64,000 nucleotides of DNA, taken from the IMG/VR virus record IMGVR_UViG_3300032007_000028; one strand, written 5' to 3'. The notes beneath the pieces were generated by a model. It did not search any database. It was not told the DNA's origin and was given only the letters and a program-made list of their open reading frames with translations. Origin of the DNA: a virus. Lineage: Duplodnaviria > Caudoviricetes. Made by a program: the position numbers and the translations under genes. Below, piece by piece: positions 17,483-50,352 of the stretch (positions are counted from its first letter, which is position 1; the number at the start of each line of letters is the position of its first letter).

Positions 17483-17570
17483 TGGCGGAAGGGCTGGGAT
17501 TCGAACCCAGGGTAGTTTTGCCTACGCTTGTTTTCAAGACAAGTGCCTTCAACCGCTCGGCCACCCTTCC
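17483..17570 (-). tRNA. tRNA-Ser(UGA)
   Basis: Long variable arm, loop CT-TGA-AA, G73, CCA. Confidence 0.92.
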
Positions 17571-21024: not shown

Positions 21025-21100
21025 TGGTTGCAGATGACGGGGTCGAACCGTCTTCCTTCGAATTTTTGCATTCGACGAACTTCCGAAGTTCCCATCCGCA
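21025..21100 (-). ncRNA. tRNA-like RNA with 8-nt non-canonical anticodon loop, ends ACCACCA
   Basis: Acceptor TGCGGAT/ATCTGCA, D arm GAAC/GTTC, arm TCGAA[TGCAAAAA]TTCGA, T arm GACGG-TTCGACC-CCGTC. Confidence 0.7.
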
Positions 21101-44374: not shown

Positions 44375-44778
44375 TCGTTAGCGGCCTCGACGCCGGTGTC
44401 TTCCATTATCTTCTTTATGTTCTTGCTTAATTTGACATACCCATTTGCGATTGCGTCGTCGATGTCGATGATGACGAGTGCGCTTTTCTCCATGAGTCTC
44501 TGCATCTCACTGCTTGCATGTGCGTAATAGTCTGCGATGAGTGAATAGGTGAACACCAAGTGCCTCGTTGCGGCCAATCTGAGAAATGCCTTCTCATCGT
44601 CGGAAACTGAAGACGCGTTGATATCGGCCAACAACTCCTGATATTTACCGACATTGACAAGAGAGTCCAATCTAGGACACTCGGCCTTTGGCAAATACTG
44701 AGGTACTCCGACCTTCGTCGTGTATTTCTTATCTTCTTCAGTCTCTTCGATTCCAAATAAATTTATTTCAGTTCTCAT
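44371..44778 (-). CDS. Small protein coupled to glycosyltransferases
   Basis: YTTKV..PQYLP, FLRLAATRH..F.Y..IADYYAH; first gene of cassette. Confidence 0.65.
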   Translation of the reverse strand: MRTEINLFGIEETEEDKKYTTKVGVPQYLPKAECPRLDSLVNVGKYQELLADINASSVSDDEKAFLRLAATRHLVFTYSLIADYYAHASSEMQRLMEKSALVIIDIDDAIANGYVKLSKNIKKIMEDTGVEAAND

Positions 44779-44824
44779 GGTGTTCCTTTCACTCCAATAT
44801 TTATGATATGATTCTATTATACAC

Positions 44825-45922
44825 TCAGTTATTAAGACATTGCAATATGAACTCCCTCGTCGACTCGATGTGCTCTTCGCAAATCTTATCGATGGCCTGT
44901 TCTTCAGTCATGCCTTTGCCCATGAACGCTTTCTTGTCCGTCTGCAATTCGTTACAGTATACATTGTAGTACCAACGTTCGGATACATCGGCGTCGCATT
45001 TGAACGGAACGACGCAGTGTTCAGCAATACAAGTGGACATTACGTAAGACAATCTCTTTGCGACCTCGTCTGCGTTCTCTTTTGGGCATTCGCCAATCAA
45101 TTCGTCGTGAACACCTATCAACATTCTGAATCCAAGACGATTCAGTTCTTCGTCGTTGTGAATCTTAATCATGGCGACTTTCGTCATCGTGGCCGCACCG
45201 CCTTGAATGCGAGCGTTTACGCACTGACGTTCGGAACGAGATATGAGATTGCTGTTCGAATGAATGGAGATGCCATCTTCCTTCGCGTCGTTTATCACAT
45301 TGACGACAGACCTTCTGTCCTTCGCTTTATGCAACTTTTCAAGAAGCGCACTCTCGACTTTCGGGTCTATCGAACGATAAGAGCATCCGATGATTGGATT
45401 AAACGTCGATGCGTTGTCGTTCATATACTTTATAGAGTATTCGGGAAGAAGCAAATCAGGCAATCTACGACGACGACCATACCAGTCTTCGACGTAGCCA
45501 GTTTTACGAGCACTGGACATCGTATCGTCCGTCCACTTTCTCACCTTGGGAAATCCGTTATAGAATCCGTCGATGATGCTTTGTGCTTCCTTCTGGTCGC
45601 ATTCCAGTCTCTGAGCGATGCCTTGAACCGACATCCCATAGATAATTCCAAGTAGAAGACCCTTTACGGAAGACCTTCTCTTTGCGCCAGCTTCGCTTCG
45701 TTTCCCTGTCTTGGGATTGAACTCAAGATTATCCTCGTAATTATTGTGATATACACGAGACGCAATCGTTGCATAAAGGTCTTTTCCCTGTTTGTATGCA
45801 TCAATCATCGCCTCGTCTTTCGCGTAATTGGCTAATAGTCTAGGTTCCTGTTGCGGCTTCTCTTACGAGAAGTCGCTACCGACAAGAACGTAAGGCGTTC
45901 TTACAGTAATCGACTTCTTCAT
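44825..45922 (-). CDS. polA: DNA polymerase A C-terminal (catalytic) fragment, interrupted by a 12-nt TAA-containing insert at 45854-45865
   Basis: AGAAAGGAGG RBS then MKKSITVRTPYVLVGSDFS*EKPQQEPRLLA in one frame; motif B KGLLLGIIYG, NARIQG, motif C VHDEL. Confidence 0.85.
45853..45876 (-). other. Stop-codon hairpin in polA motif A (candidate recoding/bypass element)
   Basis: GCG-A-CTTCTC-GTAA-GAGAAG-C-CGC; GNRA tetraloop contains the TAA. Confidence 0.75.
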
Positions 45923-46000
45923 AAATCTGCCCTCCTTTCTTTGCGATGCGAACATGTGCATCGTCTTGTAGAAGTATACATTATTATACTACTTGTTGCA

Positions 46001-47671
46001 CTACATTGCATCTTGCGCACACTTAAGAATATATTTTTTGGAACCTGCTCCATAAATGCACGCAAACGAATTTTCCTTCAACTCTGCGTATTTGCTAGGC
46101 TGTCTGTTTACCACGCTTCTGTCCTTCAGCACCCACCATTTATTGGGGCCGGTGTATCCTATGAACTTCATGCCAGACGCCTCGTACCCTTTTCCATCGA
46201 ATTTGTTGAAATCGCAATAGCTGAATATCTCTTCGGGTCTGTTATTCTTTATAAAATGATGCAGTAGTTTCGAAACGCCGCCAACGACAATGTTGTTGGA
46301 ACCGGGACAACCTCTTATTATTTCCCAGCAAGAGTCGTTCTTCAGATTGCGATTGTATTTCGTTTTGCTGAACGACATCAACTGAACCAGATTCCCCTCG
46401 TGAAACAGACCATACGTTATCTGAGCGTTTCTGTGCCCTTGAAGATGGTTCGATTCGTTGAATATCTTCGCTTCCGCATTCGAAATCTCGCGTATTTCGC
46501 ACTGTCTGGCGTAGATTTTATTCTCATATTTGCCAACTGCGATGGAGAGCATCGATTTTATGACCTTGCACTTCGTCTCGTCTTCCCATTCGTGTTGATA
46601 TATCTGAATCAGACGAATTCCGTTCTTCTCGGCCATCTTAGCCTTGTTCAGATGATAGTTTTTATTCGCGATGCATAGACTCGAATGCCAATACGTTCCG
46701 TTTACCTCGATGCCTATCTTCTTTTCTGGCAAATACGCGTCCATTTCGTAGTAGTTGCCATCGTCGTCTCGAAGAATGCTCTTGCAGTTCGTTATTATCT
46801 GCCCATCGTAGATGCTTTTCAGAAATCCGATTACGTTCTGTTCCAGTATGGACGTTCCCTTCGAGTGATTCGTTCTCGCATACTCGTCGAACAACGGAAT
46901 ATATTTCTTACTGACATATGTATAAGTGTCCGATTTTCTAATCACGTCATCTATAATGGGTGTTTCGTTTCGATAATAACAATACGCGGTAAGTTGTTTC
47001 CTCGTCAGATTCTTTACGGCTATATAACCAATCGAATCGTAATAATCATCTCGTGCTTTTATTCGTTCCGCAAAGGACAGCTTCTTCGCTTTTCCCGGCA
47101 CAAAACCTTCCGGCACCTTATCATCCATCTTCAGTCTTATGTCGTTGACACCGTCAGTATACCAGAACAGTTTTCTCTTCATCGCGCATATCTTATACAC
47201 ATCTTTGTACAAGGTGCCTTTTACGAACCCGTCTGGTATCTCTTCATTCGGCCCAAAGTACTTATTGACTTTACCATTGTTGTACAGCGTCAATCCTGCC
47301 GTCGTCGATATGCCCATTCCAATTGAGTACCCGTTCTCGATTGCGTCGCCGGGCTTTATGAGTGTCTTCTTTTTCCCGTTGTTTACCCATACGTACCCTG
47401 ATGTACCGCTTCCGTAGTTGGTTCTGCCAGGATGATAATCTGCTGGTGCGCAACAGTCTTCAGACAACTGCAAATCGTCTTTTCCGTTTGTATACCAATG
47501 CTTCTCTAATTTAGGCGACCGCACGTCGAACAGCTTCAATGCGATAGCTCGCTCCTTCTTTGTGACACCATATTTCGAACATATATATTCGATACTGTGA
47601 ATCGCCAAGTCTTTCTTGAAGTCTTCTCCGTTTTCCGACTGCACGATGCCAAGAATTTTCTTCTTACCCAT
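46001..47671 (-). CDS. Putative homing endonuclease: WYxNG repeats + Vsr/DUF559-like nuclease + GNAT-like C-terminal domain
   Basis: WYTNG/WVNNG/LYNNG/WYTDG repeats; EMDAY...IGIEVNGTYWHS...IRLIQIYQHEW; IYARQC...NHLQG...GGVSKLL..F. Confidence 0.75.
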   Translation of the reverse strand: MGKKKILGIVQSENGEDFKKDLAIHSIEYICSKYGVTKKERAIALKLFDVRSPKLEKHWYTNGKDDLQLSEDCCAPADYHPGRTNYGSGTSGYVWVNNGKKKTLIKPGDAIENGYSIGMGISTTAGLTLYNNGKVNKYFGPNEEIPDGFVKGTLYKDVYKICAMKRKLFWYTDGVNDIRLKMDDKVPEGFVPGKAKKLSFAERIKARDDYYDSIGYIAVKNLTRKQLTAYCYYRNETPIIDDVIRKSDTYTYVSKKYIPLFDEYARTNHSKGTSILEQNVIGFLKSIYDGQIITNCKSILRDDDGNYYEMDAYLPEKKIGIEVNGTYWHSSLCIANKNYHLNKAKMAEKNGIRLIQIYQHEWEDETKCKVIKSMLSIAVGKYENKIYARQCEIREISNAEAKIFNESNHLQGHRNAQITYGLFHEGNLVQLMSFSKTKYNRNLKNDSCWEIIRGCPGSNNIVVGGVSKLLHHFIKNNRPEEIFSYCDFNKFDGKGYEASGMKFIGYTGPNKWWVLKDRSVVNRQPSKYAELKENSFACIYGAGSKKYILKCAQDAM

Positions 47672-47819
47672 TTATGCCATAATATGTCTCTAATATAAGA
47701 CGAACGACGTCGGACATCGTAACGTCTTTTTTGAATGCGTCTTCGCGAATGCGTTCTCTCAATTCCGACGATATTCTCATATTGAACTGCACTTCGTTTT
47801 TGTTCTGCTGTTTGGACAT
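47664..47819 (-). CDS. Arc/MetJ-type ribbon-helix-helix protein (51 aa, below ORF-track cutoff)
   Basis: MSKQQNKNEVQFNMRISSELRERIREDAFKKDVTMSDVVRLILETYYGING*; AAGGAG RBS. Confidence 0.8.
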   Translation of the reverse strand: MSKQQNKNEVQFNMRISSELRERIREDAFKKDVTMSDVVRLILETYYGING

Positions 47820-47847
47820 ATTTCTCCTTTCATATTACTTTAGCACA

Positions 47848-49449
47848 TTATTTTTGTAATACCGTATTACACTTAGTATACAATAGTACGTAGTCGTCGA
47901 ACTCTTTCGTGTCGATAATCGTAAGAATATCGCCGTCATCCGTTTTAATCGTATCTCCTACTTTTACGAGTTTTGACGAAACCCATTCGTCATTTACGCA
48001 AATTTCGTCGATTTTTGATACCTTGAAGCAATCATCATCTTCTTCTACTTGATGATAATTAGTCGAAGCTTTGAACATCATTCGTATTTCGTGATTCTTT
48101 GAAGGAATTTGTTGTAGATTCGGATTCGAACACGAGAAACGACCCGTAGCGGCCCCAACTTGATTGAACGAGCAGTGAACTCTCCCGTCCTTCTTGTTGA
48201 CGTAGTCTGGAATCTTGTCGATGAAGTTGTTTACGAGAGTCTTGAACGTCTTTCTTTCGAGAAGAATGCGTAAAATCGGAACGTCTCGCTCCTCTAGAAT
48301 CTGAGGAATCGTATTCTTATCAGTGCTTCTTGGTTTCTTTCTGTTGATTGGCGGAATCTTGAGGATGTCATAAATAAGAATCGCAAGTTGTGTCGGGGAT
48401 TCCAGATTGATTGGGTCTTCCAACTGCTCGGACTTCGTTTTGTTACCTATCAACGTCTGTGCGTCTTTCGTTTTTCGCCAATTTTCGATTAACGGCCTTA
48501 ATTTTGACATTTCGTCCATTATCGGCTTATCGTAATCGTCTAGAATCTTATGATACTTCACGCCAAGTCTGCTCGCGTAGTCTAAGTCCACTTCGATTCC
48601 GCAGTCTTCCATTTCCATGACGACTCTGAGACACGGAAACTCGACGTTCATCAGCAAATTGTAGATTCGTTCATTTTCCTTCTTCTCGAATTCGTGAAGT
48701 TGATACGAATAGAGCTGATAGGTCATCAACGCGTCGGTAGCAGAGTACAACGCGAACAGTTCTGGGTCGAAAATCGCATAACTTTCCTTCTCAAACAGAT
48801 GTTCAATGTCGTATTTGCCGTGGTCTTTGTCGATGTGAAGAATGTATTGTTCCTTAAGACTCGCAGGCTCGTTTTCGTTGAGAATCTGAGACGCAATCAT
48901 CGTATCCCAATGATACGGCACGTCGATTCCGCAAGTATGTCTGATGACGCGAATGTCGAATGATGCGTTGTGATAGATGACTTTGACTTTTGCTTCTACG
49001 ACACGGGAAAATTCCTCTTTGAGGTCGTTTTCCGTAAGTTGATTTGGCAAACGCTCGTTCGTCACACGATTGACGTGATGAATGGGAACGTACGCCTGCT
49101 TTTCATTGGGTGTATAAAGACATGCACCCATAATCAAACAGGTCAAAGGGTCCAACGAGTTGTTGGTTTCCGTGTCGAGCGCAAGAACGCCGTTTTCGAT
49201 GCACTTAGAAATGTATCTGTGCAGTTCGTCTCTGTCACGAATGACCTCTGTGTCGTCTTTGTGTTTACCTAAAATGGCCATGACGTTTGATTCAATCACG
49301 GCCATTTTATCTTCCAATGACAACTTCGATGAAATCTTCTTCGTGCTAGAGACTTTTTTGGGGGAATTGATTTTGTCGAGAAGTTTCTCTGTGTCGTTGA
49401 CTGGCAACGAGAACTCCTCGCCCCACAATAAACTCTCTTTAGCTGTCAT
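47848..49449 (-). CDS. polA: DNA polymerase A N-terminal fragment (3'-5' exonuclease + thumb) with Hint-like C-terminal tail
   Basis: ALDTET, YHNASFD, YSATDA; NLESPTQL, TGRFSCSNPNLQQIP...IRMMFKA then 72 non-Pol residues. Confidence 0.9.
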   Translation of the reverse strand: MTAKESLLWGEEFSLPVNDTEKLLDKINSPKKVSSTKKISSKLSLEDKMAVIESNVMAILGKHKDDTEVIRDRDELHRYISKCIENGVLALDTETNNSLDPLTCLIMGACLYTPNEKQAYVPIHHVNRVTNERLPNQLTENDLKEEFSRVVEAKVKVIYHNASFDIRVIRHTCGIDVPYHWDTMIASQILNENEPASLKEQYILHIDKDHGKYDIEHLFEKESYAIFDPELFALYSATDALMTYQLYSYQLHEFEKKENERIYNLLMNVEFPCLRVVMEMEDCGIEVDLDYASRLGVKYHKILDDYDKPIMDEMSKLRPLIENWRKTKDAQTLIGNKTKSEQLEDPINLESPTQLAILIYDILKIPPINRKKPRSTDKNTIPQILEERDVPILRILLERKTFKTLVNNFIDKIPDYVNKKDGRVHCSFNQVGAATGRFSCSNPNLQQIPSKNHEIRMMFKASTNYHQVEEDDDCFKVSKIDEICVNDEWVSSKLVKVGDTIKTDDGDILTIIDTKEFDDYVLLYTKCNTVLQK

Positions 49450-49488
49450 ATCATATATTATATAACGGGTTACGGTATAAGTCTACGA

Positions 49489-50352
49489 TTATTTATAGTC
49501 GTAGGTACGACGGGGTCTTGCGACTGTCGGGTCGTTTGCACCACCAACTGCGGTGTCGAAGCGACGTTGGGGAATCTCTTCCTGAACGGGCTGGCGAGCC
49601 ATGGTCGCGTCGCCCATCACGCTCACGTCTACCTTCGGTTTCTGCTCGGTATATTCGTACTTCGCAGTTTGCTGAGGATAAGTCTGTGTTTGCGTGACTT
49701 TGATTTCCTCGTTGTTGGCTTGAGGCGCATGCTTTGTAAACGTACCCGTTTCTAGAATCTCGTTCATCTCATCGAAGGTACGTTCCATGTACGAATGATG
49801 ATTGAGTTCGAAGCCATCGAAACCAGAGAAGTCTTTCACAAAACCAGCTTCTTCGCTGTACATGGCGGGATTCTTGAACATGATGTCATAAGACACCTTC
49901 ATGTCGCCTTTCGCCCCACGACGAACGACTTTGAAGACGACGTCGCGTAAATCGCCATATTCGCGAAGATAGGATTCGAGCGTCTTTGCGAAGAACGCGG
50001 GACGTTCCCACACCTTGGGGGTGACTGTGACTTTGCCTTGTTCGTCGGTGGCGTATTCGAGCAAGCGAACGAACATTTTGGCAGAGCGTTTTTCACCAGC
50101 TTCGCAAAGAGGGCATTTGCTTAATGGTTCCTTTGCGGTGCGTAAACACGCGATGGTGCGGAACTTATCATCGACTTTGACGCGATGAACGTCGACGAAT
50201 TCGAATTCGTTGGTTGAAGAATAGGCGAATCGAACGATGGCGCTGGATTCGTTGTCAGGAAGAGAGAAGTACCCGACCTTGCGTTCATTGCGATTGCTGG
50301 ATGCACGATTCTCTTCCATGGTTTTGTAGGTTTCGTAAGTGTAGATTCCCAT
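49489..50352 (-). CDS. Single-stranded DNA-binding protein (gp32-like)
   Basis: H...C...CPLC zinc site, KVWER, R.G.KGD...Y; replication module. Confidence 0.7.
   Translation of the reverse strand: MGIYTYETYKTMEENRASSNRNERKVGYFSLPDNESSAIVRFAYSSTNEFEFVDVHRVKVDDKFRTIACLRTAKEPLSKCPLCEAGEKRSAKMFVRLLEYATDEQGKVTVTPKVWERPAFFAKTLESYLREYGDLRDVVFKVVRRGAKGDMKVSYDIMFKNPAMYSEEAGFVKDFSGFDGFELNHHSYMERTFDEMNEILETGTFTKHAPQANNEEIKVTQTQTYPQQTAKYEYTEQKPKVDVSVMGDATMARQPVQEEIPQRRFDTAVGGANDPTVARPRRTYDYK

Follow-up and report, generated by a model that had tools for sequence, protein, structure and literature searches.

In phage T4, translation of gene 60 bypasses 50 nt of its message, at a site belonging to the MobA homing-endonuclease element (Manning and Atkins, bioRxiv 10.1101/2022.08.31.505936; Bonocora et al. 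2011, cited there), and the bypass insert protects its carrier from MobA (bioRxiv 10.1101/2022.08.31.505936). The element combines C- and N-terminal tails and a diverged host-like segment with a bypass at the end of the insert; some forms have lost or exchanged the endonuclease but retain the bypass, and others are split and lack a bypass (bioRxiv 10.1101/2022.08.31.505936). According to the same 2022 survey, efficient programmed bypassing in bacteria and phages comprises one homologous family, T4 gene 60 and its relatives, with a cassette that 'remains unique' (bioRxiv 10.1101/2022.08.31.505936). Here we describe a 12-nt interruption of catalytic motif A in the only PolA (family A DNA polymerase) gene of an uncultured 149-kb phage, analysed in a 64,000-nt stretch of IMG/VR record IMGVR_UViG_3300032007_000028 (the window; all site coordinates are on its minus strand). 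The 12 nt are probably the coding gap of a programmed short-range translational bypass, at the 3′ end of a homing-endonuclease cassette that splits the gene.

The locus resembles T4 gene 60/MobA in several respects. In both, insertion of a homing endonuclease has broken an essential replication gene into a tailed upstream piece and a downstream piece carrying a new leader and a diverged copy of the deleted host sequence. In both, a stop codon immediately follows the take-off codon, a hairpin lies at take-off, and take-off codon and matched landing can shift jointly by one codon; in the T4 element survey, take-off shifted from Gly to Asp with the landing codon changing in step. Finally, the landing codon is where the insert stops, and loss or replacement of the endonuclease can leave the bypass in place. 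The differences lie in the host gene (PolA motif A here, the Toprim domain of the topoisomerase II large subunit at Asp45/Gly46 in T4), in gap length (5–16 nt among the relatives described below, versus 20–50 nt), in the leader (17–19 codons versus 46), in the take-off residue (Ser or Ala versus Gly or Asp) and in the hosts, probably Clostridia-type gut bacteria here versus Enterobacteria. The likeness is one of architecture, drawn against a published description of the T4 element. We regard it as probable that the PolA hop is built like the T4 element yet is independent of it.

Three further systems share features with this locus. In synthetic stop-hops in E. coli, peptidyl-tRNA passes over a stop codon to a nearby cognate triplet a few bases away in any frame (Weiss, Dunn, Atkins and Gesteland 1987; O'Connor et al. 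1989, as cited by the survey). The PolA arrangement would likewise involve a frame-independent hop over a stop to a nearby triplet, but those events were engineered or adventitious and low-level, whereas the PolA site has been conserved within a natural, essential gene that has its own dedicated leader and, in some members, also a hairpin. In the terminase gene of Streptomyces phage phiHau3, non-coding blocks of about 7–10 nt follow UUA codons, and regulatory bypassing has been proposed with partial mass-spectrometry support in a heterologous host (PMC10732093). There, too, a conserved protein is restored once very short gaps are taken out of a natural phage gene; however, its trigger is a rare 'hungry' UUA codon and not a stop, it has neither an endonuclease cassette nor a split, and it concerns a different gene in few genomes. 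Fractured genes such as Aeh1 nrdA/MobE, and the related split-intein cases (PMC2677866), resemble the PolA locus in that an essential gene is cut into two cistrons by a nuclease gene that brings a stop, a Shine–Dalgarno sequence and a start, with interchangeable endonuclease families. They differ in relying on protein assembly or split inteins, whereas here an untranslated gap follows the new start and intein residues are absent. Full-text literature searches, with subscription-only papers outside their coverage, returned no report of bypassing in a polymerase gene.

A stop-opened gap interrupts polymerase motif A

The cistron encoding the C-terminal half of PolA (C-half) begins with a Shine–Dalgarno sequence at 45931..45940 (AGAAAGGAGG) and an ATG at 45922-45920, which opens a 19-codon leader (45866..45922). 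This leader consists of a basic N-terminal extension followed by the motif A β-strand, the catalytic Asp (GAC), Phe and Ser, and ends ...GSDFS. Its last codon, the predicted take-off codon TCG (Ser; 45868-45866), directly abuts the stop codon TAA (45865-45863) that opens the 12-nt gap (45854..45865). Six purines and the triplet CCG (45856-45854) complete the gap, which contains no TCN triplet; CCG is its first triplet to match the take-off codon UCG at two of three positions. The gap boundaries are ambiguous by 2 nt because CG is repeated at the two ends. Immediately downstream, CAA (45853-45851) opens QQEPR and with it the C-half (44825..45853, stop codon 44827-44825), whose frame stays open for 342 codons and covers the rest of motif A together with motifs B and C. 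No start codon lies at the resume point, and the next in-frame start is the ATG at 45808, 15 codons downstream. Removal of exactly 12 nt joins GSDFS to QQEPR and yields a canonical family A motif.

A first-pass annotation made from the letters alone had read ATG...GGT AGC GAC TTC TCG, the 12 nt and CAA... in a single frame, had placed the interruption of motif A at 45854-45865 with GSDFSQQEPR restored by excision, and had described motifs B and C as intact. Every one of its sequence statements holds, and motifs B and C are intact, with a Pfam DNA_pol_A match over model positions 161-380. What the annotation missed is the wider context: a homing-endonuclease cassette has split the gene, and the gap forms the 3′ end of this insert.

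The N-terminal half of the polymerase (N-half) is encoded separately, as a 533-aa protein at 47848..49449 that comprises the 3′–5′ exonuclease, the polymerase as far as ...EIRMMFKAS and, after it, a C-terminal extension; it matches Pfam DNA_pol_A_exo1 and DNA_pol_A model positions 23-152. Against the PolI model PRK05755, the N-half match ends at position 660 and the C-half match restarts at 669, and the leader therefore supplies exactly the eight missing positions, including the catalytic Asp. Leader and C-half thus correspond to contiguous PolI model positions 661-668 and 669 onward, one protein in two segments. The record, rated 99% complete, holds this one PolA only. Neither a suppressor tRNA nor an altered genetic code was found in the genome, in which TAA ends 49 long frames.

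Between the halves lies a free-standing homing endonuclease gene (46001..47671, 556 aa) with matches to phrog_3339 'homing endonuclease' (E 3e-66) and phrog_559 'HNH endonuclease' (E 6e-54) and no Pfam or NCBIfam match. The cassette order is N-half with its tail, a ribbon-helix-helix open reading frame (ORF), the homing endonuclease, Shine–Dalgarno sequence, leader, gap and C-half.

We propose the following course of events. Ribosomes would initiate at the strong Shine–Dalgarno sequence and ATG, translate the 19-codon leader and then pause, with UCG held by peptidyl-tRNA-Ser in the P site while UAA occupies the A site. In a fraction of ribosomes, codon–anticodon pairing would be released instead of termination taking place, and the mRNA would shift by 12 nt, probably aided by the hairpin, in which the gap is looped out, and perhaps also by the nascent leader with its basic residues. 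Next, the tRNA would re-pair with CCG through two of three bases, both at G:C-type positions, and decoding would restart at CAA. The product would be a C-half with an intact motif A, ready for assembly with the N-half. By analogy with T4 MobA and gene 60, the gap probably also breaks the endonuclease target in motif A DNA, which would leave the carrier genome protected. As conjectured in the first-pass annotation, the element might also gate polymerase synthesis.

The same design recurs in 39 relatives

The first-pass annotation had pointed to homologous polA loci as a check on the insert. We collected such loci through degenerate-pattern scans of IMG/VR and searches of JGI metagenomes, GTDB genomes and GenBank (L-numbers such as L009 and L031 denote these loci), and found gaps at the same site in 39 distinct relatives, the 12-nt form being present in one assembly only. 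All 39 follow one design, in which a Shine–Dalgarno sequence and a leader ending in D-F/Y-S are followed by a stop, a short gap and a QQEP-type C-half. Every case has a GGAGG-type Shine–Dalgarno sequence (those of the GGAGGTGAT type lie at the same distance from the start as in the window) and a basic leader of 17–19 codons. Gap lengths span 5–16 nt in total and fall in all three phases, and removal of the gap always restores the motif; therefore no single frameshift or readthrough event explains all members. The gap-opening stop is TAG in 29 cases, TAA in 7 and TGA in 3. The first start codon after the gap lies anywhere from 4 to 25 codons away, never has a Shine–Dalgarno sequence and is not conserved.

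In most relatives the take-off codon and the last gap triplet match. The last gap triplet is a Ser codon (TCN) in 34/39 cases and in 21/25 distinct gap types (binomial p 5e-22 against an expectation of 1/16), and in no frame does another TCN lie between the stop and this predicted landing triplet. TCN is absent altogether from the four mismatched gap types, and non-cognate landings are confined to genes whose take-off codon is TCG or TCC (5/9, versus 0/30 for TCT; p 2e-4). This distribution fits a requirement for re-pairing that two strong G:C pairs suffice to fulfil, with the window (TCG to CCG) in this class, and latitude in P-site re-pairing has been reported in the literature.

Individual members vary the theme. 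Two loci, L346 and L359, place the predicted hop site one codon later, in a D-Y-S-A motif (L359:2473-2497 (-), on a 223-kb phage contig); their take-off codon GCC and landing triplet GCT both specify Ala, and their gap is 5 nt long. One relative (L008/L009) shows the same split with an HNH endonuclease and a homologous leader that ends D-F-S with TCG, followed by TAG and two bases, a 5-nt gap that changes frame. In the D-Y-S-type loci L092, L077 and L198, the 6-nt gap (TAG plus a Ser codon) resembles a diverged tandem copy of the preceding Tyr-Ser codons, with which BLAST aligns it. The origin of the gaps may lie in a two-codon duplication that later acquired a nonsense change, in which case take-off and landing codons would have matched from birth.

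Selection acts on both sides of the gap. Between gap-bearing phages, the ratio of nonsynonymous to synonymous substitution rates (dN/dS) of the C-half is 0.02-0.10, including pairs with gaps of 16, 6 and 7 nt, which argues that the protein is produced even as the gap drifts. The association between split and gap is strict, with 39/39 gap-bearing genes split against 0/221 uninterrupted motif A contexts; all 221 uninterrupted relatives keep the D-x-S-Q-Q-E spacing, and in unsplit relatives sharing about 50% aa identity the motif is uninterrupted. L019/L020 are split without a gap. The first-pass annotation had suggested a bypass with a take-off codon, an adjacent stop within a hairpin and a landing triplet, and this proposal is favoured by the 39 relatives, the 34/39 cognate landings, the Ala-Ala variant, purifying selection and the MobA-like cassette.

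All gap-bearing members are uncultured. A blastn search for cultured carriers with two family members returned only unsplit Clostridium and Streptococcus phage polymerases, and the polymerases of Bacillus phage Flasso and of phiCTP1 are annotated as single genes. One family member is documented by an independent assembly, an UNVERIFIED, unannotated human-gut phage scaffold in GenBank (MT839691.1, 2670-2745; L335) with the same leader and 6-nt gap as L026, L029 and L031. The scan of GTDB contigs yielded mostly chance matches (2 of the first 120 rows were real). Two loci, L443 (JBGVOD010000040.1) and L474, lie on contigs binned into bacterial metagenome-assembled genomes, and one member so binned is on a 130-kb contig of a fecal Lachnospiraceae genome, a hint at a Clostridia host range.

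The gap ends a mobile cassette

Comparison of closely related phages places the gap within the insert. Loci L029 and L031 have flanks 95-97% identical to those of the unsplit L111, but in place of 57 nt of L111 they carry a cassette that is either 1622 nt long and has an endonuclease or 613 nt long and has none. In the polymerase-like part of the leader, identity to L111 is about 78%; directly after the landing triplet it rises to 100%, and this jump identifies the gap as the 3′ end of the insert. The gene is thus split by a free-standing endonuclease in the sense that two cistrons of one enzyme flank the nuclease gene, while near-identical phages such as L111 hold unsplit alleles. The slot between the halves contains a GIY-YIG gene in 16/23 loci sampled; its other occupants are HNH (HNH_3), LAGLIDADG or the phrog_3339 type of the window, and nine loci have no endonuclease. 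The L029/L031 lineage further carries a group I intron in the polymerase N-half, between N-L and Q-N-I-P codons (L031:5153-5394 (+); RF00028, 76.7 bits), that is absent from L111, and one gene therefore combines an intron, an endonuclease split and the predicted hop.

The tail of the N-half is also part of this arrangement. In the window it is a 71-aa C-terminal extension (residues 463-533; 47851..48063) that unsplit relatives lack and in which a Pfam search found no domain. Homologous tails with a common W...L.VGD pattern are present at about 4745-4936 in L009 and about 5480-5690 in L031. From its sequence, the tail looks like a small β-rich Hint-like module without catalytic residues, and it may clamp the two polymerase halves together.

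Upstream of the endonuclease gene, and overlapping its start by 8 nt, is the ribbon-helix-helix (Arc/CopG-like) ORF of 51 aa (47664..47819), with matches to Pfam CopG_antitoxin (E 4e-4, below the curated cut-off) and to a PHROG Arc-like regulator (E 3e-5). It may encode a regulator that travels with the nuclease.

Candidate RNA and peptide signals at the predicted hop site

The first-pass annotation had placed the stop codon in the GNRA-type loop of a hairpin, and folding bears this out. The predicted mRNA hairpin around the take-off codon, stop and landing triplet spans 45844..45889. Its inner part (45853-45876) has a 6-bp stem, a GUAA loop (45863-45866) and a 3-bp extension, and an outer 8-bp stem pairs 45882-45889 with 45844-45851. 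The 51-nt site stretch folds at -20.4 kcal/mol (z -4.05), a value equalled in 0/200 shuffles, and the inner hairpin stands out against shuffled gap letters (z -4.4, p 0.002). Across the nine family gaps of at least 9 nt, in which the gap pairs with the D-F/Y codons, the combined hairpin signal is also significant (Fisher p 8e-5). Folds of family sites with gaps of 5-8 nt contain no such hairpin; gaps of this size have no room for one, and the hairpin is therefore an accessory and not a requirement. Swapping gaps between loci did not separate own from foreign gaps (p 0.16), because the upstream arm is nearly invariant.

The codon for the catalytic Asp before the gap is GAC in 39/39 gap-bearing cases, and GAT was found in none of 33 pattern matches to gap-bearing genes; close unsplit relatives use GAC in 7 cases and GAT in 5, and both codons are abundant overall. 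This invariance may reflect shared descent, or else pairing with a G-U-C that in many cases comes before the landing codon. Leaders have a constant length of 17–19 codons and basic positions conserved at -17 to -11 from the take-off Ser, and by analogy with gene 60 it is plausible that the leader acts as a nascent-peptide signal.

As the first-pass annotation had reported, the phage encodes a tRNA-Ser(UGA), found at 17483..17570 (-). It is able to read UCG and would be a candidate for the hopping tRNA. A tRNA-Asp(GUC) is encoded as well. Within the phage tRNA cluster, ARAGORN also detects a tRNA-like gene at 21025-21100 (-) with a four-base anticodon (caaa) and an encoded CCA end, drawn with either an 8-nt anticodon loop or a 6-bp stem and a 6-nt loop; it may be a frameshift-suppressor-like or otherwise aberrant tRNA.

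Alternative explanations

Several observations weigh against a programmed bypass. In every family member, the hop is predicted from sequence, and counts across the relatives lack phylogenetic independence. Stop-hops engineered in E. coli have a low efficiency (about 1%), an uneasy fit with an essential polymerase unless the leader or hairpin stimulates hopping strongly. The outer stem, which pairs the V-L-V codons with the Q-Q-E codons, recurs in folds but is no stronger than under synonymous-codon resampling (mean z -0.35, p 0.09), and whole-region fold z-scores are modest across the family (mean -1.1). The window itself departs from the usual pattern, as its landing triplet CCG is non-cognate at the first position, unlike the landings of 34/39 relatives. 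Finally, in IMG/VR and JGI metagenomes no relative of the window phage exceeded about 50-64% aa identity (at best 64% aa, over 98 residues), and neither near-identical DNA in isolate phages nor a near-identical second assembly was found; the 12-nt version has therefore been seen once, and a recent lesion in the window copy must be weighed.

Such a lesion, or an assembly error affecting the 12 nt or only CCG while the hop of the family is real, is the strongest of the alternatives and is nevertheless unlikely. The single assembly and the non-cognate landing speak for it, and a quasi-palindrome of this kind could arise by template switching. Against it stand the intact 342-codon C-half and the rest of the cassette, in a record with near-complete rating and a single PolA. 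Leader length, Shine–Dalgarno sequence, GAC, the stop right after Ser, the purine-rich gap and the hairpin all fit the family, two-of-three landings recur in four other gap types, and a random 12-nt artefact would not be expected exactly at the family hop site.

Next in order, and likewise unlikely, is removal of the gap at the level of nucleic acid, whether through RNA excision and ligation (a micro-intron), skipping by RNA polymerase, or DNA deletion between short repeats in part of the population. The base of the hairpin does juxtapose the two junctions, and short direct repeats (CG, or TCN...TCN) flank the gap. Gaps of 5-7 nt are, however, too small for any structure, and neither the constant stop at the gap start nor the constant leader length is predicted by such removal. 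Nor would splicing predict that both flanking triplets are codons of one tRNA and shift in concert from Ser to Ala. An Rfam scan of 44700-49600 at E up to 1 found no family, group I introns included, although the true group I intron of the sister locus L031 was readily detected as a positive control (76.7 bits). The micro-intron that the first-pass annotation had offered as an alternative thus finds no support, as 5-16 nt is also far below the size of any known ribozyme. A self-splicing group I or II intron was rejected on size, its catalytic core taking up a few hundred nucleotides against the 12 nt of the gap. A split intein was likewise rejected: a Pfam search at E up to 0.01 detected no Hint or intein domain in the N-half, the tails of L009 and L031 have no conserved first Cys or Ser, and the 10-residue leader segment before the strand has no His-Asn.

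Readthrough of the stop in the window, with frameshifting in other members, would give a polymerase with extra residues in motif A. The window gap is a multiple of three and keeps the frame, as readthrough would need, but gaps in three phases would require three separate mechanisms, and no suppressor tRNA is present in a genome that uses TAA to end long frames. PolI models align without an insertion between 660-668 and 669, the motif spacing is kept in every uninterrupted relative, and the added residues would sit at a point where family A polymerases have none; we consider this explanation very unlikely. Least probable of all is that the segments are never joined, so that leader translation ends with release of a 19-aa peptide and the C-half, if made at all, starts at the ATG at 45808, leaving a three-piece or truncated enzyme or reliance on the host polymerase. 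That in-frame ATG is the point in its favour, yet its Met is an ordinary conserved residue of the family, and the first start after the gap varies in position among relatives and has no Shine–Dalgarno sequence in any of them. To the left and right of the gap, the conserved residues make up a single canonical motif A, and the low dN/dS of the C-half argues for a working protein. A programmed bypass is the reading that we favour over these four.

Implications of a polymerase bypass family

We tentatively suggest, as a possibility that falls short of the case for bypass itself, that a portable bypass module, sufficient by itself, is made up of the Shine–Dalgarno sequence, the basic leader, the invariant GAC, the Ser codon, the stop and the short gap. 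Such a module would be efficient on Gram-positive-type ribosomes and would have evolved independently of T4 gene 60 as an immunity device of the cassette, with the gap breaking the nuclease target in motif A while the protein is left unchanged.

One practical consequence concerns annotation: these polymerases are truncated by gene callers, and in viromes from gut and rumen their completeness or 'pseudogene' status would be called wrongly. If the bypass is real, the polymerase loci would constitute a second, independent and much shorter bypass family, located in the active site of an essential polymerase. They would offer dozens of natural variants in gap length, stop codon, matched or mismatched landing and presence or absence of a hairpin, together with presence and absence alleles, and thus a minimal natural 5-16-nt series for dissecting take-off and landing. 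Ribosome hopping would then be a recurrent evolutionary solution tied to homing endonucleases, and, if the module also evolved as tentatively suggested above, 'split gene plus ribosome hop' would give selfish nucleases a third general option next to introns and inteins.

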